DNA from: Leucoraja ocellata
Lineage: Eukaryota
Assembly (NCBI GenBank): GCA_036785375.1
Contig: JAWMAR010000314.1
Span: 1,550,001 to 1,614,000 of the forward strand
DNA length: 64,000 nt
Reading direction: 5' to 3'
The position numbers were made by a program, and so were the translations under genes. Below are positions 3,843-61,091 of the stretch, piece by piece (position 1 is the first letter of the stretch; each line of letters starts with the position of its first letter). The notes below the pieces were generated by a model, which saw only the letters and a list, made by a program, of their open reading frames with translations, was not told the origin of the DNA and ran no database searches.

Positions 3843-4018
3843 TGTTTAAGAAGGAACTGCAGATGCTGGAAAATCGAGTGTCTGAAGAAGGGTTTCGGCC
3901 CGAAACGTTGCCTATTTCCTGTCTGAAGAAGGGTTTTGGCCCGAAACGTTGCCTATTTCCTTCGCTCCATAGATGCTGCTGCACCCGCTGAGTTTCTCCA
4001 GCATTTTAGCGTACCTTC
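3843..4018 (+). mobile_element. Penelope-derived short insertion with two tandem hammerhead-like motifs
   Basis: Antisense pLTR end (GTTTAAGAAGGAACTGCAGATGCTGG) then two copies of GTCTGAAGAAGGGTTTYGGCCCGAAACGTTGCCTATTTCCT (41-bp period). Confidence 0.8.
3882..3950 (+). ncRNA. Two tandem minimal type I hammerhead-ribozyme motifs (3882-3909, 3923-3950)
   Basis: CUGANGA core, helix II GGGU-UUCG-GCCC, GAAA, palindromic ACGU, GUU cleavage triplet; helix I only about 2 bp. Confidence 0.55.
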
Positions 4019-4854
4019 ATGTAGATGGTTACTTGATGAACACCATCGACATGATGGGCCGAAGGGACTGTTTCTGTGTTGCATAACTCCGTGGTTCGAT
4101 GACTTTTCAGCCAATTGCAGAAAAAACACCAATGATTTCTTGAAAGCTTGTGGCCCCCTTTTAAGCATCTTTCAGGTGTTTTGATGCCAGTCCCAGCTCT
4201 ATTTTCTGCCTTCTCCCACCTTCAATCCCAGCCTTGGATCCCACACCACCCTTCTCACAACAGTAGGAGGAGGGGTGAAGGTGTACAATTTGTCACTCTG
4301 TATTGTGTCCTTGCAAGTCACAGGATGAAAGATCTGTGGTTGGCACAGAGAAAGCTGAGTGTGCAGTAATACAGGGAGGATTACATCAGAGGTAAAGTGT
4401 CGGATGGATGATTGTCCTGTGTTGCTGCGCTACAAGAAGTGATTTTGTTAATAACGCAAGGCAGCAGATTGGTAGATGACTGCTGCATTCACCAGCGCAG
4501 GTTTAATGAGGTCTCGACACACACAACAATTGCTTTATTAACACATTTTGCCTTTTATCCATCCCCAGACAACTAAATTATTGATGTAATGAACATAGTG
4601 TATAGCTGTCCAAATCCAAATTGAGTTCTTCCTCTAATCAGTACATTGTCAAATACCAACATCCTCGAGACTTTCACTAATTAGAATCAGGCTCTTCTAG
4701 GGGAATCGACAATGGCAATTCTGCAGAGACCTTCCAGAACCTTCCTCCAGACAGCAGAGGTCATTATTGTGTGTTTGTCGTATCCCGAGTTGGACAAATC
4801 CCAGAGATAGACCCGGAAGGTTGCACTTGGTGGCAGCAGTATCGAGGACAAGAC

Positions 4855-5080
4855 CTACACCCACGCCGACTAGCGACCCCCTTACACTAACACTAATCGA
4901 CACACTTGGGGCAATTTACAATTTACAATTTTTACCAAGGTCAATTAACCTACAAGCCTGTGCGTCTTTGGAAATCGGGAGGAAACCGGAGTCCCCTGGG
5001 AAAACCCACAGCACCAGGATCAGGATCGAACCTGGGTCTCTGGCGCTGTAAGCCAACGATTCTACCGCTGCGCCATGAAG
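4855..5080 (-). mobile_element. HE1-type V-SINE
   Basis: tRNA-like head (ATGGCGCAGCGGTAGA), B-box-like GGTTCGATCC, V-domain CTCCGGTTTCCTCCC. Confidence 0.8.
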
Positions 5081-5595
5081 GGCACCTAACCCGTAGTAAA
5101 TGGTGGGGCTGGTAGCGTTGCACACCCCTCTCCGGTGGCTTCCTGCATTAACATTCTCTCACATGTGCACTGAAATCTTTCCACAACATTGTGAAGTTTC
5201 TCCTTCATTGCACTTGTTATGACTGAAGAAACACTTGATTGCGGTGTCAATAACCAGCTTGCTTCTATTTCCAGACTGTCTAGACTGTACCCACTGGAGA
5301 GAAGCAAAAATAATTAAAGTAAGGATGTTGAAGCAGGCTTTCTCTCTGGGCAGACAGCAGGGATGAGTAAAGATGCTGGTACTGTGGATGGAGTGATTGT
5401 AAGCAGTGTAAGTGCAGGATACGGTCAATGCACAGTGTGCCCACGGCTGCCTGAGCCCTGGGTAAACCACTGCCTCAGAGCTCGGCGACTGCTGAACGGG
5501 CATGTCTGGTGTGGGGGGGTGGGGGAGTTGTAGGGTCAGTGATCAAGATCGGAAACGGAGAACAAAGGAAACACTGGTGATGAGGATCAGGTTTA

Positions 5596-5801
5596 GTTTA
5601 AGAAGGAACTGCAGATGCTGGAAAATCGAAGGTACACAAACATGCTGGAGAAACTCAGCGGGTGCAGCAGCATCTATGGAGCGAAGGAGATAGGTAACGT
5701 TTCGGGCCGAAACCAAGGGTTTCGGCCCGAAACGTTACCTATTTCCTTCGCTCCATAGATGCTGCTGCACCCGTTGAGTTTCTCCAGCATTTTTGTGTAC
5801 C
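5596..5801. mobile_element. Penelope-derived fold-back insertion
   Basis: ~80-bp inverted arms meeting at GGGCCGAAACC/AAGGGTTTCGGCCCGAAACG; TSD TCAGGTTTA at 5587-5595 and 5802-5810. Confidence 0.85.
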
Positions 5802-5807
5802 TCAGGT

Positions 5808-6125
5808 TTAGTTTAGTTTAGTTTAGAGATACAGCACGGAAACTTGCCTTTCTGCCCACCGAGTCCGCACCGACCAGCGATCCCTGCACATTAACACTAT
5901 CCTACACACACCAGGGACAATGTACACTTACACCAAGACAATTGACCTACAAACCTGTGCATCTTTGGAGTGTGGGAGGAAACAGAAGATCGTGGAGAAA
6001 ACCCATGTGGTCACGGAGAGAACGTACAAACTCCATACCGACAGCACCTGTCGTGGGGATCGAACCAAGGTCTCCAGGACTGGAAACGCGCTGTAAGGCA
6101 GCAACTATACCGTCGCGCCACCTTG
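5808..6125 (-). mobile_element. HE1-type V-SINE, near full length
   Basis: (TTTAG)n tail on plus strand, V-domain, tRNA-like head at ~6095-6125. Confidence 0.9.
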
Positions 6126-6689
6126 CCGCCCTTCCCACGGTTGGAGGGGGGTACAGTTGGAGGAGGGAAGGGGCAAGTGGGTGATGGGGCCTTGGGGCTG
6201 GGGCAAGATGGGTGGGTCAGGGATCGAGACAGAGTCTGGATAAGGTTGGAGGGGGAAGCAGTGAATGGGCACGTGGATCTGGGAGCTCGGAGAGGAGTGG
6301 GTGTACGGCCAGGAGCAGGTTCTGGGATGTGTTTGGAGGGGAAAGGGTTGGTTTAGTGATCAGATCTCGGGACTGGGGGGAGATGGAAGGGTAAATTTCA
6401 GGATCCAAGGTGTGGTCGGAGTCAGAGGCAGATCAGTGGCCAGGATCAGGGGTGGGATACGGTTGGAAGGGAGGGGACAGGTCAACAACAGGTCTAAGGG
6501 CTGGGGGAAGGAATTGGGGTCAGTCAGCAGTCAGGATTTAGTCTTGGTGGGTGGGGAAGGTTGGCTTAGTTTAGTTTAGTTCAGTTCAGTTTAGTTTATT
6601 GTCATGTATACCAAGGTACAGTGAAAAACTTGTTTGTTGCGTGCTATCCAGTCAGTAGAAAGACTATACATCACTGCAGGTGTCAGAGG

Positions 6690-6800
6690 CCGGAGAATGG
6701 GATTAGGAGAGAGAGATAGATCAGCCATGATTGAATGGTGGAGTAGACATGACGGGCCGAATGGCCTAATTCTACTCCTATCACTTATGACCTTATGATT
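6690..6800 (+). mobile_element. CR1-type LINE 3' end
   Basis: GATCAGCCATGATTGAATGG..GGGCCGAATGGCCTAATTCT plus CTTATGA tail. Confidence 0.75.
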
Positions 6801-7044
6801 ACCAGTGATTGGAGTGATCATTGATGGGAGCTAATGTTCCCAAGACAGGGACTCATTTTTTCAGCGAAACTCTAAATGAATGTTCCAGGTAATTGATGCA
6901 CGTCGGAGTTGAATTTCTGGATGACAACACTACTGCAAGCTGGTTTTGCATTTAAATCACACATTTCATGTGAGCATGTCGAAGCATAGTTTGAAGTGCG
7001 ATGCATTAAGAGATAATTAGTTTGGGCAGCAAAATTCATTTTTT

Positions 7045-7290
7045 AAATTTAGTTTAGAAATACAGCATGGAACTCATCCACTCCCTACACACTAAGGGCA
7101 ATTTGTAGAGACCGCTTTACCTACAAACCCACATGCCTTTGGGACGTGGGAGAAAACCTGAGCACCCGGAGGGAAACCACGCAGTCTCATGGAGAACATG
7201 CAAACTCCACACAGACAGCACCCGAGGTTAGGATTGAACCTGGGTCTTTGGCATTATGAGTCAGCAGCTCTACCAGCTGTGCCACTGTCA
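7045..7290 (-). mobile_element. HE1-type V-SINE, degenerate
   Basis: Tail, V-domain and head remnants match the other copies. Confidence 0.75.
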
Positions 7291-7650: not shown

Positions 7651-7844
7651 TGTGCAGGAAGGAACTGCAGATGCTGGTTCAAACCGACAGATAGGCATAA
7701 AAAGCTGGTGTAACTCAGCAGGTCAAATAGCATCTCTGTAGAAAAGGAATAGGATCTGAAGATGGACCTCGACCCGGAACGTCGCCTATTCCTTTTCTCC
7801 AGAGATGCTGTCTGACCCGCTGAGTTCCTCCAGCATTTTGTGTC
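7651..7844. mobile_element. Penelope-derived fold-back insertion
   Basis: Inverted arms joined just before CTGAAGATGGACCTCGACCCGGAACGTC; TSD TATTGAGGGCA / TATTAAGGACA. Confidence 0.8.
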
Positions 7845-12583: not shown

Positions 12584-12597
12584 GTTACTATGGTAAC
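12584..12597. promoter_or_regulatory. Candidate RFX X-box in a non-repetitive island
   Basis: GTTACTATGGTAAC fits the palindromic GTTRCCATGGYAAC consensus with one mismatch. Confidence 0.35.
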
Positions 12598-13851: not shown

Positions 13852-14029
13852 CCTGGATAGAAGGAATGGGTGACGTTCCGGGTGAGACCCTTCTTCAGAT
13901 TGAAGAAGGGTCTCGACCCAAAATATCACCCATTCCTTCTATCCACGCATGCTGCCTGTCCCGCTGAGATACTCCAGCATTTTGTGTCTATCTTTGGTGT
14001 AAACCAGCATCTGTAGTTCCTTCCTACAC
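13852..14029. mobile_element. Penelope-derived fold-back insertion inside a Rex 3' fragment
   Basis: CCCTTCTTCAGA|TTGAAGAAGGG inversion centre; ~22-bp TSD ATAATCAAGG(T/A)CCACT(A/C)GCA(T/C)C at 13830-13851 and 14030-14051. Confidence 0.8.
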
Positions 14030-14660
14030 ATAATCAAGGACCACTCGCACCTCAGTCATTCTTCACCCTTCTATTCGGCAGAAGGTGCAAAAGCTTGAAA
14101 ACGTGTACCACCATATTCAGGAACAACTTCCCCACTGTTATCAGAATATTGAACGGATCTCTCATAATCTAGCCCTGTCCCACTGCACTAGTTCATTCAT
14201 GTGCTCTCCCGAGTTAAAAAAAAAATCAAACTCGTGGTAAGTACGTAGAATGAACGTAGCGGGTACGTCGGAGCTCGGGAACGTCTCTTAGTGGCTCGTA
14301 ACGCAGTAAGCTCGGAAAGACTCGTGAAGATTTTTCAACATGTTGAAGAATGTCCACGAGAGCCCCGAGTGCCTACGAGCGGACAGTACCGTAAATCTCC
14401 GAGTTCGAATCAGGGGAAACTCGGGAGAACTCTTTGAATGAACTCGTACAGTGAGACAGGGCTTTAAGGGTGTATTCCCGATCTCCCAACCTACCTTGTT
14501 GCGGCCTTGGCACTTTTTAAATCTTCAACTTCTTTGTGGATGTAACACTATATTCTTCACTGGGTAATTTTCTATTTGTACTTCCCATTGTTCTTGTGTG
14601 GCTTGATCGCACTCATGCAAGGTATGAATCAACTGGAGAGCATGTAAAACATAGTCCTGA
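14030..14660 (+). mobile_element. Rex-Babar LINE 3' fragment interrupted by a MITE
   Basis: IIKDHSH..GRRCKSLKTCTTIFRNNF-like remnant, continuing into 3' UTR after 14465. Confidence 0.6.
14171..14464. mobile_element. Harbinger/PIF-like MITE, family B
   Basis: TIRs AGCCCTGTCCCACTG..GTTCATTCA / TGAATGAACTCGTACAGTGAGACAGGGCTT followed by TAA; same family as 53528-53838 in opposite orientation. Confidence 0.8.
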
Positions 14661-15129: not shown

Positions 15130-15380
15130 TGTTGGAACCAACTGCAGATGCTGGTTTGTACTGAAGATAGACACAAAATGCTGCAGTAACTCAGAGGTAA
15201 GGCAGCATCTCTGGATAGAAGGAATGCGTGACGCTTCTGTATTTCCTTATCACTGTCTGCTTTGATCTGTCGTTTTCACACCTTACCTTTCCATATCTCG
15301 AGACTGAAACGCCACCCATTCCTGCTCCCCAGAGATGCTGTCTGTCCCGCTGTGTTACTCCAGCATTTTGAGTGTAGCTT
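15130..15380. mobile_element. Penelope-derived fold-back insertion
   Basis: Inverted pLTR arms AACTGCAGATGCTGG..AGAAGGAATG / CATTCC..AGAGATGCTG..TTACTCCAGCATTTTG. Confidence 0.7.
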
Positions 15381-15706
15381 CACCAGGACATAGCCTGAGA
15401 TAATGTTTCGGGTCAGAACTCCTCCTCAGAGGTAACTTTTCAGATCCAAGCCTCCCTTCCCAATTCTGATAAAGAGTCTCAGTTGTGAAACATCAAACAC
15501 TATAATGTTCCTCTCAACAGATACTGCCTGACCTGCTGTGCATTTTCAGCACTTTCTGTTTTTATTTCAGATTGCCAGCATCCGTATTTTTTTTATTTTC
15601 ATGTCTCCTGGCTTAGTTGGCTGTCAAATATTTTTGGTTGTACTGAATATTTCTGACATTCAGAAACATTAAAAAAGCTATTGAAGCATTTTGAATCTGT
15701 GGGAAA

Positions 15707-20044: not shown

Positions 20045-20517
20045 ATCAGTCTTTTCACCCAGAGAGTTGTGAATCTGTGGAATTCGCTGCCACAGAAGGC
20101 AGTGGAGGCCAGTTCACTGGATGTTTTCAAGAGAGAGTTTTGCCCCAGTCCCACTTAGGAAACCTGAACGGAAACGTCCGGAGACTTTGCGCCTCACCCA
20201 AGGTTTCCGTGCGGTCCCCGGAGGTTTTTGTCAGTCTCTCTACCTACTTCCACTACCTGCAACCTCCGGCAACCACCTGCAACCTCCGGGAACCGCACGG
20301 AAACCTTGGGTGGGGCGCAAAGTCTCCAGAGGTTTCCGTTCAGGTTTCCTAAGTGGGACAGGGGCATTAGATTTAACTCTAAGGGTTAAAGGAATCAAGG
20401 GATATGGGGTGAAAAGCAGGAACGGGGTACTGATTTTAGATGATCAGCCATGATCATATTGAATGGCGGTGCTGGCTCGAAGGCGCCTGCACTATTTTTC
20501 TATGTTTCTATGTTTCT
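20045..20517 (+). mobile_element. CR1-type LINE 3' fragment split by a MITE
   Basis: FTQRVVNLWNSLPQKAVEA (20055-20137) resumes at 20367 as LDLTLRVKGIKGYG; (CTATGTTT)n tail. Confidence 0.85.
20141..20366. mobile_element. Harbinger/PIF-like MITE, family C, long TIRs
   Basis: ~85-bp TIRs TGCCCC(A/T)GTCCCACTTAGGAAACCTGAACGGAAAC..; inserted at TTA of the host CR1 (flanks TTT / TTA). Confidence 0.85.
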
Positions 20518-21631: not shown

Positions 21632-22344
21632 GTGTAGTCAGATACAATCACAACATTTAAGAGGCATTTAAACAGACACTTAATAGGCAAGGCATTGAAG
21701 CAGACGGACTTAATGCGGATAAAGTGGACATCTTAGATGGGCCGAAGAGTTACTTTCCGTACTGTACAATTCTATCATGCCTCCAGGTGGCCCTTTGTAT
21801 TTGGAAAATGCAGTTTCCATTTGAAACTAATGATTCGCTGTTGAACCACGAACATGAAAATGTAAGATGTCTTCCGAACTCATTATTGGAGGGATTCTCA
21901 AAAAAACTGAAATGTTCCACGTTTCCAAAGAAAGACAAACCTACAGGGATTGGTTGAGCTAAATGGTTCTTTCTTGGGAATGGTTTATTATGGTCATGTG
22001 TTTTAACATGTTTTGCATGCAATCCAAGCAAATCATACCGTACATGAGTAATAAAAGGGAACTGCAGATGCTGGTTTATACCAAAGCTGTACACAAAACG
22101 CTGCAGTAACTCAGCGGGTCACGCAGCGCCTCTGGAGAAAATGGACAGACGTGTTAACTGTTATTTTTCCACAGATGCTGTCTGACCTACTGAGTTTTTC
22201 CCTCATTCTGTTTTTATTTGCATCTGCATTTCTTACTCCTTCAAAGTTTTGCCATCTTATTATGTCCTTTACTCAAGAACTACCTCTGCCAGGAAGTAGT
22301 TATCAGAATGGGCCAAGCTTATATATAGATAGTTTTATTGTAAA

Positions 22345-24264: not shown

Positions 24265-25851
24265 CTAAAACTGCACACAATACTCCAGGTGTGGTCTCAC
24301 TAGGGCCCTATACAACTGCAGAAGGACTTCTTTGCTTCTATACTCAACTCCTCTTGTTATGAAGGCCAACATGCCATTTGTTTTCTTCACTTCCCGACTA
24401 ACCTGGATTTCACTCAGTTCCTCCACCTCATTTGACCCCCGGTCCCCTGCTATTTCCGGCAGATTATTTATGTCTTCCTTAGTGAAGACAGAACCAAAGT
24501 AATTATTCAATTGGTCCTTGTTCCCCATGATCAATTCACCTGTTTCTGACTGCAAGGGACCTACATTTGTTTTAACTAACCTTTTTCTCTTCACATATCT
24601 ACAAAAACATTTGCAGTCAGTTTTTATGTTCCCTGCCAGTTTTCTTTCATAATCTATTTTTCCTTTCCGAATTAAGCCTTTTGTCCTCCTCTGCTGGACT
24701 CTGAATTTCTCCCAGTCCTCTGGTAGGCTGCTTTTTCTGGCTAATTTGTATGCTTCATCTTTTGTTTTGATACTATCCCTGATTTCCCTTGTTATCCACG
24801 CATGCACTACCTTTCCGGCTTTACTCTTTTGCCAAACTGGGATGAACAATCGTTGTAGCTCATGCATGCAGTCTTTAAATGCCTTCCATTGCATATCCAC
24901 CGTCAACCCTTTAAGAATCACTTGCCAGTCTATCTTGGCCAATTCACGTCTCATACCCTCAAAGTTACCTTTCTTTAAGTTCAGGACCCTTGTTTCTGAA
25001 TTAACAATGTCACTCTCCATCCTAATGAAGAACTCAACCATATTATGGTCACTCTTGCCCAAGGGGCCACGCACAACAAGACTGCTAACTAACACTTCCT
25101 CATTATTCAATACCCAGTCTAGAATAGCCAGCTCTCTCGTTGGTTCCTCTACATGTTGGTTTAGAAAACTATCCCGCATACATTCCAAGAAATCCTCTTC
25201 CTCAGCACCCTTGCCAATTTGATTCACCCAATCTATATGTAGATTTAAGTCACCCATTATAACTGTTTTACCTTTGTTGCACGCATTTCTAATTTCCTGT
25301 TTGATGCCATCCCCAACTCCACTACTACAGTTAGGTGGCCTGTACACAACTCCCACTAGCATTTTCTGCCCCTTAGTGTTTCGCCTCTCTACCCATATCG
25401 ATTCCACATCCTCCAAGCTAATGTCCTTCCTTTCCATTGCGTTAATCTTCTTTCTAATCAGCAACGCTACCCCATCTCCTTTCCCTTTCTGTCTATCCCT
25501 CCTGAATATTGAATATCCCTGGATGTTCAGCTCCCAGCCTTGGTCACCCTGGAGCCATGTCTCCGTGATCCCAACTATATCATTGTCATTAATAGCTATC
25601 TGCACATTCAACTCATCCACCTTATTATGAATGCTCCTTCCATTGAGACACAAAGCCTTCAGGCTTGTTTTTACAACACTCTTACCTCTTATACAATTAT
25701 GGTGAAAAGTGGCCCTTTTTGATTTTTGCCCTGGATTTTGCCCTGGATTTGTCTGCCTGCCACTTTTACTTTTCACCTTGCTACCTATTGCTTCTACCCT
25801 CATTTTACACCCCTCTGTCTCTCCGCTCAAACCCTTTCCCTTTAACTCCAT
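24265..25851 (-). pseudogene. CR1 ORF2 remnant: APE endonuclease fused in frame to the post-RT region
   Basis: LCLNGRSI, GITETWL, VVYRPP, IMGDLN, ILDWVL, GKSDH; jumps from VSREV to KKTNGMLAFITRGVEYRSKEVLLQLYRALVRPHLEYCVQF; no (Y/F)ADD. Confidence 0.9.
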
Positions 25852-25887
25852 CCTTGACTATCCCATTTGACACCCCACCCCCCTTAT

Positions 25888-29035: not shown

Positions 29036-30255
29036 TGCGGAGAGAGCGGTCTTTGCGGAAAGCAGACGGGTGGGGGGGGGGAGATGGGAAGATGTGGCGA
29101 GTGGTGGGGTCACGTTGGAGGTGGCGGAAAATGACGGAAGACTATTTGTTGTATGTGACGGCTAGTGGGGTGAAAGGTGAGGACTAGGGGGACTCTGCCC
29201 TTGTTGCGAGTGGAGGGATGGGGAGAGAGAGCAGTGTTACGGGGTATGGAAGAGACCCTGGTGAGAGCCTCATCCATAGTAGGGGTGGGGAACCCCCGTT
29301 CCTTGAAGAAGGAGGACATTTCCGATGCCCTCGTGTGAAACACCTCATCCTGGGAGCAGATGCGGTGTAGACGGAGGAATTGGGAGTAGGGGATGGAGTC
29401 CTTACAGGAAGCAGGCTGGGAAGAAGAGTAGTCTAGATAGCCATGGGAGTCAGTGGGTTTATAGTGGATGTCGGTCAGAAGTCTATCACCTGCGATGGAG
29501 ATAGTGAGGTCAAGAAATGGTAGGGAAGTGGCGGAAATGGTCCAGGTGTATTTGAGTACCGGATGGAAGTTAGTGGTGAAGCGGATGAAGTCAGTCAGTG
29601 GTGTGTGGGTGCAAGAGGTAGCACCAAAGCAGTCGTTGATGTGACGAAGGTAGAGGTCGGGGATGGGGCCCTGGTACGTATTGAACAAGGATTGTTCGAC
29701 GTACCCGACAAATACCTGGCGTAGCTGGCGCCCATGCGTGTGCCCATAGCTAGGCCTTGTATTTGGAGGAAATGGGAGGAGTCAAACGAGAAGTTATTGA
29801 GGGTAAGGGCCAGCTCCGCTAGGCGGAGGAGAGTATCAGTGGACGGGTATAGGTGGCTCCTCTGGTCGAGGAAGAACCGGAGGGCTTTGAGACCATCCTG
29901 GTGGGGGATGGAGGTATAGAGTGACTGGACGTCCATGGTGAAGATGAGGGGATGGTGGCCTAGACAATGGAATGCCTGGAGACGACGGAGAGTGTCTGAG
30001 GTTTCTTGAACATAGGTAGGGAGGGATTTAACCAAGGGGGGTAGGATGGAGTCAAGGTATGTGGAAATAAGTTCGGTGGGGCACGAACAGGCAGAGTCAA
30101 TGGGTCTATTGGGACAGTCAGGTTTGTGGATTTTGGGGAGAAGGTAAAATTGGGCCGTGCGGGGCTGTGGAACGATGAGGTTGGAGGCTCGGGTGGTCAG
30201 GGCCTGGGAGTTGATGAAGTTGGTGATGGTGCTGGAGATAGTGGTGGTGTGGGTG
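29035..30255 (-). mobile_element. Penelope-like element (Neptune-type) reverse transcriptase fragment, frameshifted
   Basis: IFTMDVQSLYTSIPHQDG, NNFSFD..QIQGLAMGTRMG, YLRHINDCF (degraded RYIDD), LPFLDL, YKPTD..SIPYSQFLRLHRICS. Confidence 0.92.
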
Positions 30256-30684
30256 GGGAAGAGCAGGGGTCACATAGTTAGAGGGGGATGGGGAAGACTC
30301 AGTGGAACTGCCACTGAGGTTAACAAGGCTGGGCAGACTAGCACTAGGACCCAGTGGAGTCAAACCTAGGAGAGTGTTTCCCTTTGCTCAGTTAGGTAAC
30401 ACATGGCCCACAAAATCCCAGATCTGATCCATGGTCCTTCTTGAAGGCACAGTTGACTATGGACCAAGTGAATTGGATTAGTATAGATAGTATTCATGGT
30501 TAGCATGGACACAATGGGCCAAAGGGCCTGTTTCTGTGCTGTGTGATTCAATAACCCTATGACGTTATGGAAGGTACCGTGGGGTGATGTAATTAGTTTC
30601 AGCACTCAGGAGAGAAGTCAGCTGAGCTTCCTGCTGCTGAACCCTAACCACCCGTCCGTCCATAGCTGGAAGCAAACTTCACTT

Positions 30685-31178
30685 TGGTTTAGTTTAGTTT
30701 AGTGTAGGGATACAGCGCTGAAACAGGCCCTTCGGCCCACCGAGTCCATGCTGACCAGCGATCTCCGCACATTAACACCACAGTAGGGACAATTTACAAT
30801 TTTACCAAAGCCAATTAGCCTACAAGTCTTTGGAGTGTGGGAGGAAACAGAAGCTCCTGGGGAAAAGCCACGCAGGTCACGATGAACGTACTCTTCTCAC
30901 AATACCCTTCCTTATCTCTGTGTCTCCCTCTCCCTTGACTCTCAGTCTGAAGAAGGGTCTCGATCCGAGACGTCACCCATTCCTTCTATCCAGAGATGCT
31001 GTCGGTCCCGCTGAGTTACTCCACCATTTTGTGTCTATCTTCGGTGTAAACCAGCATCTGCAGTTCCTTCCCACACATGAACGTACAAATTCCGTACAGA
31101 CAGCACCCGGAGTCAGGATTGAACCCAGGTCTCTGGCTCTGTGAGGCAGCAACGCCACCGCTGCACCATCGTGCCGCC
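30685..31178 (-). mobile_element. HE1-type V-SINE with a nested Penelope pLTR fragment (30892-31076, plus strand)
   Basis: SINE tail, V-domain and head; insert carries CTGAAGAAGGGTCTCGATCCGAGACGTC; TSD ATGAACGTAC at 30882-30891 and 31077-31086. Confidence 0.88.
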
Positions 31179-32762: not shown

Positions 32763-33480
32763 CAGGGGTGGAAATCACTGTCAAAACATGGGGGGGCACA
32801 ATTTCTTGGTGGCCACACGCTCACGCACACACACACACACACACGCGCGAGGCTTCGGCCGTGGGCCCTGTGGACGGTAACCTGGTTGGTGACGGCCCGA
32901 ATCGTGGGGCTTGAATCGGCCCGTTCGCGGGACCTTTCATCGCCTGGAGCGGTTTAAAACCGGCCGCCAGATCTTCCATCGCCCGGCGAGGGCTTCAACA
33001 TCGGGAGCCTCGATCGCCTCGGCGCAGCAATATGGCCGCAGGGCGGTGGAAGATCCCGCGGCCAATTTAAGCCGCGCCGGGCGATGAAAGGTCCCACGAA
33101 CGGGCCGATTCAATCTCCGCTCTATGATCTTTGCTCCACCAGGTCGTTTCCCTCCTCCAATCACCGCGCTCTATCCTCTGTCCCACCCCCTACTTCCGCC
33201 TCCGACCGACACCTCCCTCCTCCAATCATCATGCTGAATCATGTCCCATTCTCCCCCCCACTACCTGCTGGCCGACGTCTCTCTCGTCCAATCGGCGCCC
33301 TTGATCATCAGTCCCACCCCCACTGTCTCGCGGAAAGTGGAGATTTTTAATCGATTTTTTTCACCGAATTATAAATCCGATTACAAAACATGGAGGGGAT
33401 TGGCCCCCACCTCTCAAAACATGGAGGGGGCGTGTGTCCCCGACCCCCCCCCCCCCCCCCCCCCCGGATTTTGGTCCTTG
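32763..33480. mobile_element. hAT-like non-autonomous DNA transposon
   Basis: Degenerate TIRs CAGGGGTGGAAATC / GATTTTGGTCCTTG, subterminal TCAAAACATGG, 8-bp TSD CCATCATC / CCACCATC; related to 63169-63413. Confidence 0.75.
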
Positions 33481-39025: not shown

Positions 39026-39185
39026 CATTGCACAGATCAAGCCCAGTGGAAAGTCTGGACACGGGTATTTTGAGGCTGCAGAGCCATCATTTCCCCTGCA
39101 CCCTACAATGATTCATCGTTTTATGTACTGGCAGCTGCTCAGTACACTGCCTTTACCGGTGGATCCTGTCTGTGTATCCTAAAAA

Positions 39186-39402
39186 TACCCCTGTCCCACT
39201 TAGGAAACCTGAACGGAAACCTCTGGAGACTTTGCGCCCCACCCAAGGTTTCCGTGCGGTTCCCGGAGGTTTTTGTCAGTCTCCCTACCTGCTTCCACTA
39301 CCTGCAACCTCCGGCAACCACCTGCAACCTCCGGGAACCGCACGGGTGGGGCGCAAAGTCTCCAGAGGTTTCCGTTCAGGTTTCCCAAGTGGGACAGGGG
39401 CA
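39186..39402. mobile_element. Harbinger/PIF-like MITE, family C
   Basis: Near identical to 20141-20366 with a short deletion in the right arm. Confidence 0.85.
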
Positions 39403-40215
39403 TTTTTAACTCCTCACTAGCAGCAGTGCCTGGCACAACTGTGTTACAAAGTCACGCAGACACCTGCTTGATCCATTATTTCCAGGGGCCACTCCCTTTA
39501 GTTTTCCAGAATGTTGTTCACAAGCCTTGGAATTCTCATCCTTTAGCCCTATTATTTTCTCAATCATTATTTCTTTATTAACACTGATTTCCTTGGGACC
39601 CTTAATCTCTGTAGCGTACATTCAAAATACCAGGAATATGTATGGAGTGGGGAATCTTGTAGGTCTCGGCGAAGCATTGGGCACGTCAGTGGTGTAATGA
39701 TCTGTGGTTTTTGGATGACAATACCCTCTCAAGGCAGGATGTGTGTATCCGCTGGGGTTTGTAGAATCCGGGTGATCAAAGCCCAAGCACCATTGTTCAC
39801 GTCTTGGGCTGTATGCCGTGGCTCTGTGTATTTCCTACATGTATAGACCAACGAGTCTTTGTCTTCAGTTACTCCCCATTATTTTCCTCTCACCTTCATG
39901 TTCTTGGGACAAAGTGTTTTGTATCGAATAGATCACCAGGGACTCTGAGCTAGGGTGTAATCTCTGACGTATTCCCCTGCCATTTGTCAGGGAATTTAAA
40001 AAGAAGGATATATCTCAAAAAGTTTCTCATATGTGCTGTTTCTAATCCTTTAAGCATAAAATAAGTTGATATTTAAAAAAAAGATTGGAATATCTAAAAC
40101 CAAACACATTGGCTGAATGTATTACATTCGCACTATATACTCTGTAAATTGGTCGCCACAGTATAGGAAGGATATTGGTTCTCTCGCGAGGGTGCAGAGG
40201 AGATTCACCAGGACA

Positions 40216-40492
40216 TTGTGCAGGAAGGAGCCACAGATGCCGGTTTGCACCGAAGATAGACACTAAATTGTGGAGTGACTCAACGGGACAGGAAGCATCT
40301 CTGGGTGACCTTTCTACATTTCCTTATCATCTTCAGGTTAGATCTGTGGTTTTCACACCTTACCCTTCCATACCTCTAGACTCCCGCTCCTCTGAGTCAG
40401 AAGAGGGGTCTCGACCCGAAAACATCACCCATTCCTTCTCTCCAGAGGTGCTGACTGCCCCGCTGAGTTACTCCAGCATTTTTTGTCTATCT
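40216..40492. mobile_element. Penelope-derived fold-back insertion in an old CR1 fragment
   Basis: Inverted pLTR arms; CAGAAGAGGGGTCTCGACCCGAAAACATC hammerhead-like remnant. Confidence 0.7.
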
Positions 40493-41421
40493 ACAGCACG
40501 ACATAGCCTGGGATGAGATGCTTCAGTTATGAGGAATCACAGGATAGGCTGGGTTGTTTTATTTGGAGCACAGGAGGCTGAGGGGGAACCTGACTGAGGT
40601 GCACAGGGAGAGTAGTTAGAGGAAATGTATAGATATGGTTTATTTAGATAAAGGCATTTGACAAGGTGCCCCATAAGAGGCTGGTGCATAAATGAAGAGC
40701 CTAAGGTGTTCGAGGCAGTGGGTTAGCATGTACTGGAAAATGGCTGTCACATGGAAAACAAAGAGTTGGGTCCTCTCATACATGATAGGAGCAGAATTAG
40801 GCCATTCGGCCCATCAATTACCACTCCACCATTGAATCTTGGCGGATCTATCTCTCCCTCTCAACCCTCATCACTCAGCCATGATCATATTGAAAGGCGG
40901 TGCAGGCTCGAAGGGCCGAATTGCCTACTCCTGCACCTATTTTCTATGTTTCTATGTTTCTATTCTTCTGTCTTCTCCCCATAACTCCTGACACCCATAC
41001 TCATCAAGGATCGATCTATCACTCCCTTAAAAATATCCTCTTCAGGCTGGAAGAGTGAAACTCATGAAGCCCCCCAGAGATTGATTCATGGTTCTTGGCA
41101 CTCATTTGTTTACTACATATATTAATGATTAGAGGAGGGAATAGAATGTATCCAAGGTTGCCGATGATACAAAAGGGACACATTGTGACGAGAACATCGT
41201 CATTCTGCAGTGGAGGATAGATATGTGGAGTGGGTGGGTAAAACCCTGGCAAGTGGGATTTAATGCGGGGAGGTGTTTGTGGCCAGGCGCTGGGCAAGGG
41301 AAAGCTAAAGGAAGAATATTGTCTAAATGGAGAGAGACAACAAATGAGTGAAGTCCAGTGGAATCGAGGATTTTCAGTACACAAATCACAAAACGTTAGC
41401 CGATGGGTTCAACAGGCACAT

Positions 41422-41865: not shown

Positions 41866-42059
41866 AGATAGGCACAAAATGCTGGAGTAACTCAGCGGGA
41901 CAGACAGCATCTCTGGAGAGAAGGAATGGGTGATGTTTTGGATCGACCCAAAACGTCACCAATTCCTTCTCTCCTGAGATGCTGCCTGTCCCGCTGAGTT
42001 ACTCCAGCATTTTGTGTCTACCTTCAATTTAAACAAGCATCTGCAGTTCTTTCCTACTT
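41866..42059. mobile_element. Penelope-derived fold-back insertion
   Basis: ~75-bp arms centred on GGATCGACCC (hammerhead helix II position); perfect 11-bp TSD AGGCACTGTGA at 41855-41865 and 42060-42070. Confidence 0.88.
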
Positions 42060-44292: not shown

Positions 44293-44677
44293 ACTCCCGG
44301 TGGCTCAGCACTTCAACTCCCCCTCCCATTCCCAATCCGACCTCTCTGTCATGGGTCTCCTCCATTGCCAGAGTGCGCAATACCGGATATTGGAGGAACA
44401 GCACCTCATATTCCGCCTGGATTGCTTGCGTCCGGATGGCATGAACGTTGAATTCTCCCAGTTTTGCTATCCCTTGCTGTCTCCTCCCCTTCCTTAACCC
44501 TCGAGCTGTCTCCTCCCATCCCCCCGCCCTCGGGCTCCTCCTCCTCCCTTTTTCCTTCCTTCTCCCCCCCACCCCCCATCAGTCTGAAGAAGGGTTTCGA
44601 CCCGAAACGTCGCCTATTTCCTTCGCTCCATAGATGCTGCTGCACCCGCTGAGTTTCTCCAGCATTTTTGTCTACTT
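44293..44677 (+). mobile_element. Penelope-like (Neptune-type) 3' fragment
   Basis: VAQHFNSPSHSQSDLSVMGLLHCQS..LEEQHLIFRL..PDGMNVEFS plus pLTR; same family as 440-857. Confidence 0.88.
44584..44611 (+). ncRNA. Minimal hammerhead-ribozyme motif, best-preserved copy
   Basis: CTGAAGA-A-GGGT-TTCG-ACCC-GAAACGTC: core, Watson-Crick helix II with UUCG loop, ACGU palindrome, GUC triplet. Confidence 0.6.
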
Positions 44678-49690: not shown

Positions 49691-50055
49691 GCAGCCATGA
49701 TCATATTGAATGGCGGTGCTGGCTCGAAGGGCCAAATGGCCCACTCCTGCACCTATTCTCTATGTTTCTATGTTTCTGTGCTGTGCGACTTCCAAGCGTG
49801 TTCAAAATGGTCGCAGATAAGAGGAAATGGCCTTAGCTTAATGTCTCACCTTGAACTGGGCAGTGCTCCCTCAACATTGACTGCATCATCAGCCTAGACC
49901 TCGCCCATTAACATTACTTTCCACTTGTCATCCAAATATTATGTCGTGGTCACGATGGATGTTCATCAAGCTGTTCTGTGTAGACACACCTGCAGATCAC
50001 CCCTGGCCTTACGCCAAGCTATGTCCTGTTTTCTATTATGCTGTATCAGTTAAAT

Positions 50056-51948
50056 ATGGATGAACAGCGAGGTCAGGCTACTGCTGAAAGCACGGGACAC
50101 CGCTTTCAGGTCAGGCGATGCTCGAGCCTACAGTTCATCCAGCGCTAACCTGAAGAGGGGCATCAGGAAGGCCAAGCACTGCCATAAGCTCAGGATTGAG
50201 GAGCACTTCAACAACAAGTCCGACCCCCGACGCATGTGGCAAGGCATCCAGGCCATCACGGACTACAGACCCTCCAACATCACCCCCACATCCAGCGACG
50301 CCTCCTTCCTTGAGGAGCTTAATCACTTCTATGGCCGCTTCGACAGGGACAATCTAGAGACAGCCATCAAGGCTGTGCTACCTGCCGATCACCAACCCCT
50401 CACACTCACCACCTACGACGTGTACGTGGCACTGAGTAGGACTAATGCACGTAAGGCTGCTGGCACTGACGGCATCCCCGGGCGCGTGCTCAGGGCCTGT
50501 GCTGCGCAGCTGACAGACGTCTGGACTGACATCTTCAACCTGTCACTTGCCCAAGCAGTTGTCCCCACTTGCCTTAAAGCCACCTCCATCGTGCCAGTGC
50601 CAAAACACTCCACTGCGGCAAGCCTCAACGACTTCCGCCCAGTTGCACTTACCCCCATCATCACCAAGTGCTTCGAGAGGCTGGTCCTGGCACACCTCAA
50701 AAGCTGCCTACCCCCCACACTGGATCCCTATCAGTTTGCCTACCGCAAGAAGAGGAGTACGGAGGATGCCATCTCAACGGCACTTCACTCCGCCCTCTCC
50801 CACCTTGACAACAGAGACACTTATGTAAGAATGCTGTTCATCGATTACAGCTCAGCATTCAACACCATTATTCCATCAAAACTGATCACCAAACTCGGTA
50901 ACCTGGGCATCGACCCCTCCCTCTGCAACTGGATACTGGACTTTCTAACCAACAGACCCCAGTCTGTGAGGTTAGACAAGCACACCTCTTCAACCCTCAC
51001 CCTGAACACCGGTGTTCCTCAGGGCTGTGTGCTGAGCCCCCTCCTCTACTCCCTCTTCACCTATGACTGCACACCTGTACATGGTACTAACACCATCATC
51101 AAGTATGCAGATGATACAACGGTGATTGGCCTCATCAGCAACAACGATGAGCTGGCCTACAGGGAGGAGGTCCAGCACTTAGCAGCATGGTGCGCTGACA
51201 ACAACCTGGCCCTTAACTCCAAGAAGACCAAGGAGCTCATTGTAGACTTCAGGAAGTCCAGAGGCGGCACGCACACCCCCATCCACATTAACGGGACGGA
51301 GGTGGAACGTGTTTCTAGCTTCAGGTTCCTGGGAGTCAACATCTCCGATGACCTCTCTTGGACCCACAATACCTCTACTCTGATCAAGAAGGCTCATCAG
51401 CGTCTCTTCTTCCTGAGGAGACTGAAGAAGGTCCATCTGTCTCCTCAGATCCTGGTGAACTTCTACCGCTGCACCATCGAAAGCATCCTTACCAACTGCA
51501 TCACAGTATGGTATGGCAACTGCTCTGTCTCCGACCGGAAGGCACTGCAGAGAGTCGTGAAAATTGCCCAACGCATCACCGGTTCCACGCTCCCCTCCAT
51601 TGAGTCTGTCCAAAGCAAGCGCTGTCTGCGGAGGGCGCTCAGCATCGCCAAGGACTGCTCTCACCCCAACCATGGACTGTTTACCCTCCTACCATCCGGG
51701 AGGCGCTACAGGTCTCTCCGTTGCCGAACCAGCAGGTCGAGGAACAGGTTCTTTCCGGCGGCTGTCACTCTACTAAACAACGTACCTCGGTGACTGCCAA
51801 TCACCACCCCCCCCCCCCCGGACACTTATTATTTTTTTTATTCAAATCGTTTGCTATGTCGCTCTTCAAGGGAGATGCTAAATGCATTTCGTTGTCTCTG
51901 TACTGTACACTGACAATGACAATTAAAATTGAATCTGAATCTGAATCT
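50056..51948 (+). mobile_element. Rex-Babar LINE, 5'-truncated, probably young
   Basis: Uninterrupted RT ORF, short 3' UTR, (GAATCT)n tail. Confidence 0.93.
50060..51793 (+). CDS. Rex-Babar reverse transcriptase ORF (577 aa; APE domain absent through 5' truncation)
   Basis: [70 protein letters not shown]; no stops or frameshifts. Confidence 0.92.
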
Positions 51949-52215: not shown

Positions 52216-52461
52216 AGGGCCTGTCCCACTTGGGTGTCATTTGCGCATCACGCTGATGGCGCGTGAAGATTTTGTACATCCCAAAATCCTGGGGCGCCAC
52301 GTGCGACCGCGCATCACTGCCTATGTCACCACACACCATGCGCGCGTAATGCCCACCATGTGTGCATCAAATGCGCGTCATAACGTGCGCGTCGTGCGTT
52401 ATGACGTATAATTGATATCGCGTAAATTATGCGCAAATGACGCCCAAATTGGAAAGGCCCT
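52216..52461. mobile_element. Harbinger/PIF-like MITE, family D
   Basis: TIRs AGGGCCTGTCCCACTTGGGTGTCATTTGCGCAT / ATGCGCAAATGACGCCCAAATTGGAAAGGCCCT followed by TAA. Confidence 0.8.
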
Positions 52462-53490: not shown

Positions 53491-53527
53491 GATGTCCCAG
53501 GTTGACATCAATAACGCCATGGGCTCA

Positions 53528-53838
53528 AAGCCCTGTGCCACTGTACGAGTTCATTCAAGAGTTCTCCCGAGTTTGCTCTGATTCAAACTCGGAGATTTAC
53601 GGTAATGGCTGCTCGGGGGTACTCGGGGCTCTCGTGGACATTTTTCAACACGTTGAAAATCTTCACGAGTCTTCCCGAGCTTACCGCGTTTCCCGAGTAC
53701 CTGCCGTTAGCGTTACGAGCCACTAAGAGACGTCCCCGAGCTCCGACGTACCCGCTACGTTCATTCTACGTGCTTACCACGATTTATTTTTAAACTCGGG
53801 AAAGCACTTGAATGAACTCGTACAGTGGGACAGGGCTT
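53528..53838. mobile_element. Harbinger/PIF-like MITE, family B
   Basis: TIRs AAGCCCTGTGCCACTGTACGAGTTCATTCAAG / CTTGAATGAACTCGTACAGTGGGACAGGGCTT; flanks TCA and TAA. Confidence 0.85.
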
Positions 53839-54444
53839 TAACTGAGCAGATGAGGGAGGCGTTGTAATGAAGAGCCATCTTGGACTCCCTGATTGAAATG
53901 GTCTCCATAATGCAGAAACTCTCCACACTCCAAGCACCAACACCAACATAGGACACTGGTAATAAATGGGGAGAGTCCAAATGAAGTATAATATTCTCTC
54001 ATTCTGGGCCATCTGCACTGATTATAGCACATCTGTGGAGCGATCCCAGATCCAGTTACTACAAAAACACTGTCCCTCCAAACATGTTGTATCACACGTG
54101 AAAAACTCACCTTCACATAAAACACACTTTTCTTGCAGGATCCCTGCTTTTCAGACGTAAACAGTTTCTGAAGGTTTGAGGGCTTTGATCTGCTATTCCA
54201 CAGATCCATTGTTGTGGTGAATGAGCTGAGAGCAGGGCACAGCACAATACGTGGATGAGATTGGCAAGCATCGTGTCGGAAGATGCACTGAAGGGCAAAC
54301 ATTTGAAGGCAATGACATGCGGACATTGAGCAACGTGAAACCCTCCATGCAACTCCAAGAGCAGTTCAGTTTATGCTTTTGCAACGTTATAACTTACACA
54401 GTAGAGCACAAGGATGAAGTGTAAGTGTTGGATTCACCTCACAA

Positions 54445-54592: not shown

Positions 54593-54711
54593 TAACTGTG
54601 TGTGATCACTAGAGGTTTGAACACAAACAAGCTCAGCTGACTAACCGCATTACTGTTACTTTAAATTGCTCTGTAGAAAGGGGTCTCTTGGAGAACAGAT
54701 AACAACGAGCA

Positions 54712-57384: not shown

Positions 57385-57742
57385 TATAGACACTAAATGC
57401 TGGAGTAACTCAGTGGGACAGGCAGCATCTCTGATGAGAACGAATGGGTCGAGAACCCTTCTTCAGACTGAAATTCAGGGGAGAGGGAGACACAGAGATA
57501 AGGAAGGGTAAGGTGTGAAAAGGAGACATCAAAGGGGATGAGGTTCAAGGAAAATATAGAATAGATCATTGTTAGCTAGGAGAAGGTGATAAAGATGCAT
57601 AAAATGTAATCAGGAGGACAGTCAGACTGGACAGAGAACTAGGAAGGGAGAGGGATGGAGCGAGAGGGAAAGCAAAGGTTGCATGAGGTTAGAGAAGTCA
57701 ATATTCATACCGCTGGAGTGTAAGCTGCCCAAGAGAAATATG
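57385..57742 (-). mobile_element. Penelope-like 3' fragment
   Basis: LIFLLGSLHSSGMNIDFSN-like C-terminus plus pLTR; perfect 10-bp TSD AGTGACTGGG at 57375-57384 and 57743-57752. Confidence 0.88.
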
Positions 57743-58973
57743 AGTGACTGGGACTTGGCTTCAAACTATCTTGACCTGGCGTGAGCCTTGATTTCAGCCC
57801 TTACACTTTGGCTGTTTTGTGCCTTGATATCAAGGTTTTTTGTGCAGTCTAGCCTTTGAATTCTGGACACACTGACTATGGACACTCCTTAATATCAGGC
57901 TGTGCCTTCACTTTAAGCTTCATGGTATAGGCAGTGCCTTGCATTGAGGCTGCACTTTACAGCTCGGTCTTTGACTAAGACTAGAGGAGAAAGGCTGGTC
58001 CATGACTTTGTTGAGGCCCCACATAGCATTGATTGGGCCCAGTTTCCAGGCTTCATTTGACATTTTAGGCCCAGTCTCAGCAATAAGGCTGCACTCAAGG
58101 TCCAGATATTTTCCCTTTGCGGTCCTGCTTTCAGGCCTATTGCTGGGACTGGACCTTGACTTCAGACTGCATTGTGCAGCCTGTAAAATACAACATAAAG
58201 ATCTGACTGCGCAGTGCAGCCTAAAGTCCCCATCTGGAGGCCTCAGGCTCTGTGGCACAGTCAGGGACCTCATGTCACCTGAATGTGCAGATGGGGTCAG
58301 GCTTTGGCTTCATGTTGTAATCTATAATCTAAACCTGGATATCATGGTCCATGAAGTGAAGGCCAGCCTGAGGTCCAAGAGGCTTGAAATGTCAAATGGA
58401 GCCTGAAAGCTGGGCCCAATCAATTCAGCCTGCATTGTGGTGGCTGAAACCAGGGCATGGCGTGTAAAATCCGCGCTGAGGATCCAGTGGTAGCCTGAGA
58501 TCCAGGCCCAACTTGTACGATGCAAAGGGAGGTGCAGACTCATCTGTGTAAGCCATCCTGGGGCAGACCGCAGTGAGGAGATACAGCATGAGGTGAAACT
58601 CCAGCCTGAAGGATGTGGATTAAAGTCACGCCCCAGCCTGTAAACGGCCAGACTGTAACATGCAACCCGAGACCAAGGCCTAACTCATAATGTGCAGCAG
58701 ATGACAAGGTCCAATGCTGCTGCAATGCAGACGGAAGTAAGGACCAATCCATGAAACCAAATCTGAACCCACTGTAGAACCCATATAATTGGTGTGAACA
58801 TAGGACCCTGCCTACATATGACAGCCTGATTTCAAAGTCAAACCTTCACAATACAGCATTATATGCAGTTACAGGCAGTAGTAAGTTGCCTAAAAACAGA
58901 CCAGGCTATGAAATCCAGCCTGGAATAAAGGCCCGAACTATAAAGAGGAACCTATAAATCAAGGGCCAGCAAG

Positions 58974-59268
58974 GTTTTGTTTAGTTTAGAGATACAGAGC
59001 GGAAACAGGCCCTTCACCCACCGAGTCCACCCCGATCCCCGCAGACTAACACTATCCTACACACACTTGGACAATTTACATTTATACCAAGCCAATTAAC
59101 CTACAAACCTGTGCGTCTTTAGAATATGGGAGGAAATCAGATATCCGGAGAAAACCCATGCAGGTCGCGGGGAGATGTAAAAACTTTGTACAGTCAGCAC
59201 CCGTAGTCAGGATCAAACCCGGGTGTCTGGTGCTATAAGGCAGCAACTCTACCGCTGCGCCACCGTGC
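58974..59268 (-). mobile_element. HE1-type V-SINE
   Basis: Tail, V-domain and head on the minus strand; another SINE head at 59782-59885. Confidence 0.88.
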
Positions 59269-60908
59269 AGCACCGGCAGATTACTGTCACGGTCTTCTGT
59301 ATTATGGAGTCTGATGGCAAATCCCAACTTCCAGCCAGTAGGTAAGCCGAGAAAGTCAAGGCCCAAGCTGTACTGTGCTGTGCTGCTGCCTGAAGCCAAC
59401 AACGTGGGCTGATGCGGATAATGTCAGCCTTCACAGTACAGCCTGATATTAGGGCCCATTCTATGCAAGGATCTATCTGTAAAACAGCAGAAGTTGCTGG
59501 AAACTGCCTGCCCTATTCCCACACTGACTTCTCTGTCCTGGGCCTCCTCCACTGTCATGCAAATTCGAGGAACACCACCTCATATTTTTCTTGGGCAGCT
59601 CACAAACCAGCGGTATGAACCTGAAATCAAGGCCACCAGCAAGCACCCCCCCCCTCTCTCCCCTCCCCATCCTAGTTATCCTACTTGTTCCACTGTTCGC
59701 AACCTTCACATCAGCACACCTTCTCCTCCACCCTTCCTGAGGTCATCTGTTGCTGGTCCTATTTTGTTCTGACCTTCTGACCAAACTCCGTACAGACAGC
59801 ACCCGTCGTCTGGGATCAAACCCGGGTCTCCGGCACTGCAAGTGCTGTAAGGCAGCAACTCTACCGCTGTGCCACCGTGTCACCCTGAATTGGTTCCGAA
59901 GGCTGAAGTAGATGCTCAAGTCTCCAACATGGGACTCGTACCAACACATTCAGAGACAGAGGCAGGGGCACTGGTGCTGAGCCAAGACCCGACACATAAG
60001 CACAGAGAGGCTGTATCCAAACCCAGACAGAGACGTTCTCTGTGCTGGTCCCTCATGCATAGCAGAATGTGTTCTGCACAGTGTCTAAAAGACTATGAAT
60101 GACTGCATTCTGATTTAGGTTGGCTGCCTGGAACCTCTCACGTTTCACTCTCCGCACATGTTGACCTTGGGCTCCTCTTTTGAATGCTATGTCCTTCTCT
60201 TACATATTGCGGTTCCCCTTGAAGGGAAGATATTTCCGTATCATCAAAATGCACCCATCTCTTGAGCACCCTGGCCAGAATTCCTGAAGGGCAAAACACT
60301 TGAGCAACTGAGCAGAGCCAACGTGCCAGTGTGATGTATCATCCCGCAAATGCCCCAACACATCAGTACTAATTGGCTCAGCTAGCTTCAGTTATCTCTG
60401 TCTGGGCTGCATCAGGCCTCCATACATTGTGTCTGCACCATCAGGTCCTTGGTCTCGGAAGGGCAAGCAAGAGAGGCTGGGAATGCATTAACTGGAGCTC
60501 TGAACCTGAAGTTGCAATATCAATGAACTACTTCATTTTGTTCATGCAAAGCAAGCACAAAACAGAATCTGCCATTTGTTACCAGTTTTCATCTCTTTCC
60601 CTTTTATCCCTTCACCCCCACCCCTGTGTGAAACAACCAACTTGTCCCTCTCTTTCCCGTGCCACTCTCATCCTTGTGTGTATCCATTCTTCCACATTCA
60701 ACCGCTTCTCCACCCACCCCTCCGCCCCCACACACACACACACGCACACGCACACAAACACCGTCTCTTTCATCTATATCCTGATCTCTGGGTTTACACT
60801 CCTCGTCTCTCCATATCCGGTTCCCTTTTGTCCCTTTTTCATCTCCAGCCTATCTGCCGCCCACCTGCAAGTGAACCCCCCACCTGTATCCACCTATCAC
60901 TTGGCAGG

Positions 60909-61091
60909 GTTTAAGAAGGAACTGCAGATGCTGGAGAATCGAAGGTTACCAAAAAAGCTGGAGAAACTCAGCGGGTGCAGCAGCATCTATGGAGCGAAGG
61001 AAATAGGCAACGTTTCGGGCCGAAACGTTGCTATTTCCTTCGCTCCATAGATGCTGCTGCACCCGCTGAGTTTCTCCAGCTTTTTTGTGTA
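60909..61091. mobile_element. Penelope-derived fold-back insertion nested in an older Penelope pLTR (60765-61255)
   Basis: Near-perfect ~68-bp arms centred on TTTCGGGCCGAAA; 17-bp TSD ACCTATCACTTG(G/T)CAGG at 60892-60908 and 61092-61108. Confidence 0.9.

Follow-up and report, generated by a model that had tools for sequence, protein, structure and literature searches.

Head-to-head hairpin insertions of a Penelope-like element in Leucoraja ocellata and their probable origin by twin priming

The genome of Leucoraja ocellata contains short hairpin insertions made from the pseudo-long terminal repeat (pLTR) end of a Penelope-like element (PLE), five of which lie in the 64,000-nucleotide stretch analysed here (the window; assembly GCA_036785375.1, contig JAWMAR010000314.1, positions 1,550,001 to 1,614,000, forward strand). 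In each of them an antisense pLTR end is joined head to head to a sense copy, within or beside a hammerhead-ribozyme-like motif. These hairpins are probably one-off Penelope-like insertion products, generated by twin priming from both target nicks, with the two complementary DNAs (cDNAs) joined head to head; they are dead-end products that do not propagate themselves. The making of inverted, tailed Penelope insertions is called undefined in the available part of PMC8557442, and the large insertion record in this genome excludes two mechanisms and favours a third that can be tested. The hairpins add ~70 near-perfect inverted repeats per Mb to the genome, from which double-stranded RNA may arise.

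Arms, tails and target-site duplications

Element positions take the first C of the motif as +1, the three preceding bases being 0, -1 and -2; cleavage is predicted to occur between +28 and +29, the inner 3' end is at ~ +93, and the tail ends at ~ +128 in subfamily A or +132 in subfamily B. All five window hairpins were found where a preliminary description of this DNA had placed them, each with its own target-site duplication (TSD) and two head-to-head arms (Table 1). Their junctions lie, as it had stated, within or beside the motif, the arms reaching back to +10/+7, +30/0, ~0/0, +14/+14 and +11/+11, and two looser copies at 15130 and 40216 are likewise head to head. A detail that it had missed is that the tail is present on only one arm in each of the five.

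The layout was quantified in a position-picked sample of 140 stretches of 10 kb, taken at fixed positions on contigs C1 to C140 (1.4 Mb; large contigs only). One reference was prepared for each of the four subfamilies (A1, A2, B1 and B2), and two arms were counted as a pair when the gap between them was at most 30 nt after extension against references reaching ~320 nt upstream, a definition by which longer inverted insertions fall among the unpaired arms. The sample held 609 arms, 198 of them forming 99 head-to-head pairs and 411 unpaired, which extrapolates to ~243,000 pairs in the 3.44-Gb genome (Poisson range 198,000-296,000), 74,000 of them with a detectable TSD. Among head-to-head neighbours 102 of 154 lay less than 150 bp apart, compared with 12 of 134 tail-to-tail neighbours and 10 of 79 and 12 of 95 tandem ones. 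Because of this excess of close neighbours, and of a fold z of -19 for the hairpin at 60909-61091, the head-to-head pairing is not due to chance.

The TSD finder, which passes 1 of 300 random sites and four of the five window hairpins, detected a duplication in 30 of the 99 pairs, with lengths of 10-18 bp (mode 14) and one 26-bp call in a microsatellite. Among these TSD-flanked pairs 29 consist of one tailed and one tail-less arm, and the 30th is unclassifiable; if start sites were picked independently at 50%, the probability of such an outcome would be ~2e-9. Over all 99 pairs, 69 have one tail, 9 no tail and 6 two tails, and 15 have an eroded end. The two arms also differ in reach: in the one-tail pairs the tail arm stops earlier in 46 cases, later in 13 and equally far in 10 (Wilcoxon p = 3e-5). 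The tail arm can be as short as the tail only or 13-19 nt (loci L220 and L221; window 3844-3877), and the tail-less arm extends further 5' by up to 329 nt. Single arms have a TSD in only 19 of 411 cases; age and fillers explain part of the difference, but priming at both nicks may be a condition for a clean TSD.

This asymmetry contradicts the earlier proposal of a template switch or fold-back of one cDNA. Were one cDNA, or an antisense RNA, to snap back at the motif palindrome and copy itself, the tail arm would have to be the template, yet in the 46 pairs the tail-less arm is the longer one on the 5' side. Fold-back is excluded for these pairs because a folded strand copies only what it already holds; two primers on the sense RNA explain them. 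Fillers at 43 of the 99 junctions, and the same 5' stop in plain copies, likewise speak against such self-priming, while the position of the two commonest exact junctions on quasi-palindromes, the subfamily marks common to both arms and the 10 pairs of equal reach are what it would give. Fold-back could still hold for the symmetric minority of pairs; as the origin of the hairpins in general it is very unlikely.

Both arms of a pair share non-reference sites in excess of shuffled data, at 21 sites compared with 8.6 in subfamily A (maximum 15 in 2000 shuffles) and at 70 compared with 25 in subfamily B (maximum 43), a concordance that fits one RNA template without proving it. Hairpin arms at loci L002-L028 carry base changes right after G, immediately past the cut site and also where the inner end lies. 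Such G-adjacent variants occur in 10 of 66 and ~10 of 65 readable hairpin arms, a query-biased set, and in 0 of 40 and 0 of ~43 copies linked to an open reading frame (ORF). A two-template origin of these mismatches was rejected because the ORF-linked copies lack the variants and thus provide no source diversity; the mismatches are possibly sequencing or polishing errors.

Junctions, 5' ends and the predicted cut site

The 99 pairs have 92 distinct junctions, and the 30 TSD-flanked pairs have 30, which bears out the suggestion that hairpins form de novo. Apart from the junctions with filler, 40 overlap by at least 2 nt and 16 are blunt. Across the genome, the 15-nt quasi-palindrome junction (+11..+25) was found at 2,135 exact loci and the 9-nt quasi-palindrome junction around 0 at 1,683, compared with 61 for the blunt -1/-1 junction; the search patterns were unequal in length and subfamily range, and the ratio of these counts is rough. 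The commonest junctions sit on short palindromes, and self-complementarity, to which the preliminary description had given a role, matters for where the two ends join.

Near-identical whole hairpins (94-98%) occur at many loci and, together with the recurrence of one exact junction, are what would be expected of a self-propagating family, either a DNA miniature inverted-repeat transposable element (MITE) or a hairpin RNA that is mobilised again as a whole. We consider such a family most improbable, given the diversity of junctions and the variable TSD length. The termini are not inverted repeats, one end having an unpaired tail; both outer ends are precise starts of reverse transcriptase (RT), whereas a re-copied hairpin RNA would give such a start on one side only; and the commonest junction recurs on several subfamily haplotypes, the two arms agreeing in each case. 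The term MITE-like, which had been applied to these insertions, fits their hairpin shape but neither their ends nor their unfixed TSD lengths and junctions, and the MITE class was rejected on the unpaired ~35-nt tail at one end, the TSD range and the 30 junctions in 30 TSD-flanked pairs.

The 5' ends are concentrated at -5..+2, where 71 of the 198 paired arms terminate and, among the 411 unpaired ones, 126 (Fisher p = 0.23). Plain copies end at the same place as fold-backs, so that this hot spot is not tied to inversion as had been supposed; 102 of the 411 unpaired arms still end there after dropping copies whose upstream sequence possibly belongs to an unrecognised subfamily, as do 11 of 19 TSD-flanked plain copies. 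Among 30,775 young subfamily A copies with a perfect motif genome-wide, 5,836 stop at -1 and 3,556 at -2, corresponding to 19% and 14% of the copies reaching each base, and 21,383 keep C at -3. Sixty -1/-2 loci were read: some are plain copies with a TSD or short filler abutting -1/-2, and at the others an inverted arm is present, which ranges from 13 nt to full length. Some apparent -2 starts are in fact starts at -1 where one base matches the TSD, and 4 of 40 represent long copies with a point mutation. Tandem jumps arrive at -2..+3 as well, in 7 of the 30 loci. The expectation that junctions lie near the motif holds for one arm of most pairs, at least one ending in -5..+33 in 85 of 99, but for both arms in only 45.

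The cut site, in contrast, is not where arms turn, and the predicted self-cleavage has left no genomic footprint. Of the 198 paired arms, just 1 has its end in +27..+32, which contradicts the idea that cleavage sets the switch point, and 9 of 411 unpaired arms end at +28..+32. Genome-wide, the base before the body is T in 67,527 copies and a different one in 13,026; 86 of the 100 first-listed non-T bodies are the C allele, and the remainder, when scaled, amounts to ~2% at the cut site, an upper bound that includes point mutations, compared with 19% at -1. It is thus scarcely credible that self-cleavage leaves an RNA end at +29 from which RT runs off and switches template, even though one arm of the window copy at 7651 ends at +30 and the motif keeps minimal-hammerhead features. 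Most arms traverse the site, and in vitro cleavage by the ribozyme is dispensable, catalytic mutants inserting normally (PMC11167929).

Twin priming would proceed as follows. Two staggered target nicks would each prime a cDNA on the sense RNA of the element, one from the inner start (~ +93) and the other from the outer start (~ +128), the latter yielding the tail. The -1/-2 stop, the least secure step, would be run-off at an RNA 5' end located by the front edge of the hammerhead, which would make the hairpins strong-stop-like products. The outer cDNA may often end early as the inner cDNA is already on the RNA, and host microhomology-mediated end joining may close the junction. The hammerhead would then serve as a landmark and a source of palindromes and would not act by cutting. 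The sharp rules described above (one tail, a shorter tail arm, the -1/-2 stop and an unmarked cut site) contradict self-priming.

The stop itself might have another cause, with two-nick priming retained: -1/-2 could be a 3' splice site, or RT could stall at an upstream C-rich stretch. A pyrimidine tract and CAG precede position 0 in all four subfamily references, an intron of D. virilis ends at the 5' end of helix I according to the accessible part of PMC4209133, 70% of the young perfect-motif copies read beyond -2, indicating that most cDNAs are unstopped, and full-length loci mostly start elsewhere. Splicing, however, predicts a common first exon, and instead a TSD or short local filler abuts -1/-2; the upstream flanks rarely cluster (23/173), the copies retain G-1 and A-2, which splicing would make intronic, and no GT..AG joint into position 0 was present among the 15 joints listed (99 more exist). 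A splice or stall origin of the stop is, on balance, unlikely.

Several observations weigh against twin priming with run-off. No pile of molecule starts at -1/-2 was seen in four RNA runs on locus L126, which come from fragmented libraries under another sample's label. Where a 5' pLTR runs into the ORF, one of four distinct loci starts near the motif (+7) and the others at -545, -198 and +61. The signature of a cap G is weak, with G in front of 34% of the -2 starts compared with 28% in the background, and a single untemplated G separates the TSD from the element in 3 of 30 G-loci compared with a single A/T in 1 of 40 W-loci. The 15 pairs with two tails (6) or none (9) include none with a TSD, and 69 of the 99 pairs are without a detectable one. 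Two RNAs transcribed from one source locus, or later gene conversion, could also make the arms concordant. In PMC11167929, on an element of another clade (Poseidon), no difference in start site between the strands was seen.

A wider generalisation is possible but held more tentatively, namely that endonuclease-bearing (EN+) Penelope elements normally integrate by priming at two nicks from two sites of a single RNA. An RT dimer would pair one nick with the inner site and the second nick with the outer site, and strong-stop cDNAs copied from a short capped RNA beginning at the hammerhead front edge would join the target, jump (tandems) or meet (hairpins). If this were true, one rule would account for tail, inverted pLTR, tandems and TSD alike.

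Parent element, transcripts and other features of the window

The Penelope origin given in the preliminary description agrees with the position of the pLTR end, which lies 3' of the ORF in 26 of 28 ORF loci, ~100-140 nt past the frame; the tail is optional at these ORF-linked ends. Relatives of the RT piece at 29110-30269 amount to 61,510 candidates. The parent frames are single ORFs of 957 and 988 aa, with a GIY-YIG match in Pfam at residues 861-896 (E = 0.0069, 17.1 bits, under the curated cut-off of 22.6). Pfam gave no RT match in the parent frames and no match of any kind for the window's ORF pieces; putative RT motifs of the parent frame were recognised by eye. The linker between RT and endonuclease (EN) in L123 and L124 has a zinc-finger-like C-x4-C-x2-C, and a cysteine motif at this place is described as a Neptune feature in the part of PMC8557442 that is available. 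As judged from its sequence, the parent is likely an EN+ PLE of the Neptune clade, with RT and GIY-YIG domains.

In 217 hammerhead-like copies, chosen by motif likeness, the helix II pairs are kept at 90-93% and the two pairs of helix I at 76-84%, with U-A/U-G exchange at 12-17 and 0-29. The putative ribozyme combines the features of a minimal hammerhead, with a conserved core, helix II, a palindromic 15.2-16.2 and helix I. Rfam returned no hammerhead match, only sub-threshold matches to microRNA-type hairpins, and the best fold of the monomer motif is an alternative hairpin. TCAGT occupies -4..0 in all subfamily references and presumably resembles an initiator; a promoter element at +28 was dropped for its poor fit to the consensus. 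In other PLEs, initiator-like and internal promoters are described in the accessible portions of PMC3846280 and PMC2377424. Copies reading past the tail (L259-L288) mostly stop 94-142 nt further on, where another tandem copy follows, and this stop is likely the RNA 3' end used for template jumps.

RNA reads carrying another sample's species label contain opposite-strand joints at -1/+21, -1/+92, 0/+9 and +6/+9; joints of hairpin type in RNA mean that some copies are transcribed. In these reads, considered without matched DNA, A>G changes are not in excess, and the unique flanks of the 60909 hairpin have zero depth in the 5% of run X24 that was read. In the single-cell RNA runs X22 and X23, mapped to L126:1816-2013 (ORF 3' end and 3' untranslated region, UTR), one strand is ~8-fold more frequent, which suggests real element transcripts in that organism.

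Besides the five hairpins, the window holds older pairs, plain copies and a piece of the parent frame (Table 1). The hairpin at 60909 is nested in the 3' UTR of an older Penelope-like copy (60870-61238; motif near 61157). The older pairs at 15130-15400 and 40216-40515 have the sense-arm start and a similar right flank in common; the flank resembles a long interspersed element (LINE), putatively CR1-like, and reflects either an old duplication or a preferred target. On the minus strand, 50054-51793 is an uninterrupted 579-aa RT frame of a non-LTR element and 24265-25857 a 530-aa frame with an apurinic-endonuclease-like start, putatively CR1-like. Other inverted-repeat elements, unrelated to the pLTR, lie at 2035-2647, 14171-14463, 20141-20366, 39180-39408, 52216-52461, 53527-53839 and 32906-33118; several have similar ends, and they look like true MITEs.

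Table 1. Copies and pieces of the Penelope-like element in the window, with arm structure, junction and target-site duplication
Feature	Position	Strand	Structure	TSD
Fold-back hairpin, subfamily A	5596-5801		tail-bearing antisense arm 5596-5714 (to +10); tail-less sense arm 5715-5801 (from +7)	9 bp (5587-5595/5802-5810)
Fold-back hairpin, subfamily B	7651-7844		tailed antisense arm to +30; tail-less sense arm from 0	11 bp, 2 mismatches (7640-7650/7845-7855); by eye only, failed TSD finder
Fold-back hairpin, subfamily B	13852-14029		short antisense arm; tailed sense arm; arms meet across quasi-palindrome centred on position 0 (~13899)	22 bp, 3 mismatches (13830-13851/14030-14051)
Fold-back hairpin, subfamily B	41866-42059		tail-less antisense arm; tailed sense arm; reach +14/+14; 4-nt palindromic overlap in loop II (41943-41946)	11 bp (41855-41865/42060-42070)
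Fold-back hairpin, subfamily A	60909-61091		tailed antisense arm; tail-less sense arm; reach +11/+11; 15-nt quasi-palindromic overlap 61012-61026, commonest junction type	17 bp, 1 mismatch (60892-60908/61092-61108)
Older head-to-head pair	15130-15380		sense arm from ~80 nt upstream of motif; most of motif lost	none clear by eye
Older head-to-head pair	40216-40492		sense-arm start same as in 15130 pair	none clear by eye
Further old head-to-head pair, absent from the preliminary description	22058-22217		reach +35/+43; 22-nt filler	
Inverted tail with tandem copies	3843-4018		lone inverted tail (3844-3877); two sense starts in tandem, both at -1 (3880, 3921); tail-less end	probable, 14 bp, 3 mismatches (by eye)
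Plain 5'-truncated subfamily A copy	44294-44675	+	ORF 3' end, 3' UTR, motif 44584-44611, tail-less end	
Plain 5'-truncated subfamily A copy	439-845	-	alignment bounded by reference length	
Plain subfamily B copy	30895-31078	+	with tail	
Broken internal RT ORF piece of parent	29110-30269	-	83% identity over 208 aa to 957-aa frame of L124	

Comparison with known systems

The available parts of PMC8557442 and, for Pen2a, Pen2 and Pen3a of Adineta, PMC3846280 describe EN+ Penelope insertions with an inverted 5'-truncated copy and a one-sided tail of 30-40 bp. These insertions resemble the Leucoraja hairpins in their head-to-head arrangement, the tail at one end, a TSD of ~9-18 bp and an overlap or palindrome at the junction, and long candidate versions of the layout also exist in this genome (L121, L133, L134 and L137). 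They differ from the hairpins, as far as these sources extend, in that the arms here measure only 10-140 nt and the pairs number ~240,000. The layout of inverted truncated copy, one-sided tail, TSD and junction palindrome is thus already in print, and the hairpins are a minimal, very abundant variant of it. The portion of PMC3846280 available reads the Adineta head-to-head junctions as self-priming of antisense RNA; the one-tail rule, near absolute in the TSD-flanked hairpins, and the asymmetry of the arms argue against that reading. Within the literature searched, which lay outside subscription papers, Repbase/Dfam and supplements, there was no paper on minimal head-to-head PLE insertions, PLE twin priming or strong-stop products, and neither the one-tail rule as a count nor the -1/-2 stop was described; the supplements of PMC4209133 and of the bioRxiv preprint cited below may list minimal head-to-head elements.

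Also comparable is PAc of the anole, a Poseidon element. Its protein, a predicted dimer, cuts both strands, extends each of them and starts reverse transcription at two internal sites ~35 nt apart that delimit the tail (PMC11167929). Two internal start sites that define the tail, and a dispensable cleavage, are common to PAc and the hairpins. PAc belongs to a different clade, however, and its ORF starts in stem II, whereas in the skate element the first ATG that fits is found ~30 nt beyond the tail; head-to-head products are not addressed in that work. Twin or dual priming of L1, in the part of PMC2837659 available, likewise involves two nick primers, inverted pieces within one TSD of ~14 bp, and microhomology or filler; in the hairpins, too, two inverted cDNAs lie within one TSD and meet with microhomology or filler. 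In L1, by the same partial source, the second primer acts at a variable internal site and the pieces do not overlap. A hairpin would form here because both start sites are fixed and adjacent, so that the two cDNAs cover the same RNA.

The predicted ribozyme shares with the minimal hammerheads of metazoan PLEs its core, an extra A before G10.1 and a palindromic 15.2-16.2, although its helix II of 4 bp and helix I of 2 bp are shorter than the consensus in the accessible part of PMC4209133, where Schistosoma motif pairs 100-700 bp apart on opposite strands are also described. Non-LTR retrozymes, as presented in the available part of bioRxiv 10.64898/2026.07.22.740005, are similarly non-coding, pLTR-derived and hammerhead-bearing. 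They form head-to-tail arrays, whereas the hairpins are head to head, flanked by TSDs and with ends that avoid the cut site; assignment to the retrozyme class was rejected, as the units are head to head and not delimited by +29.

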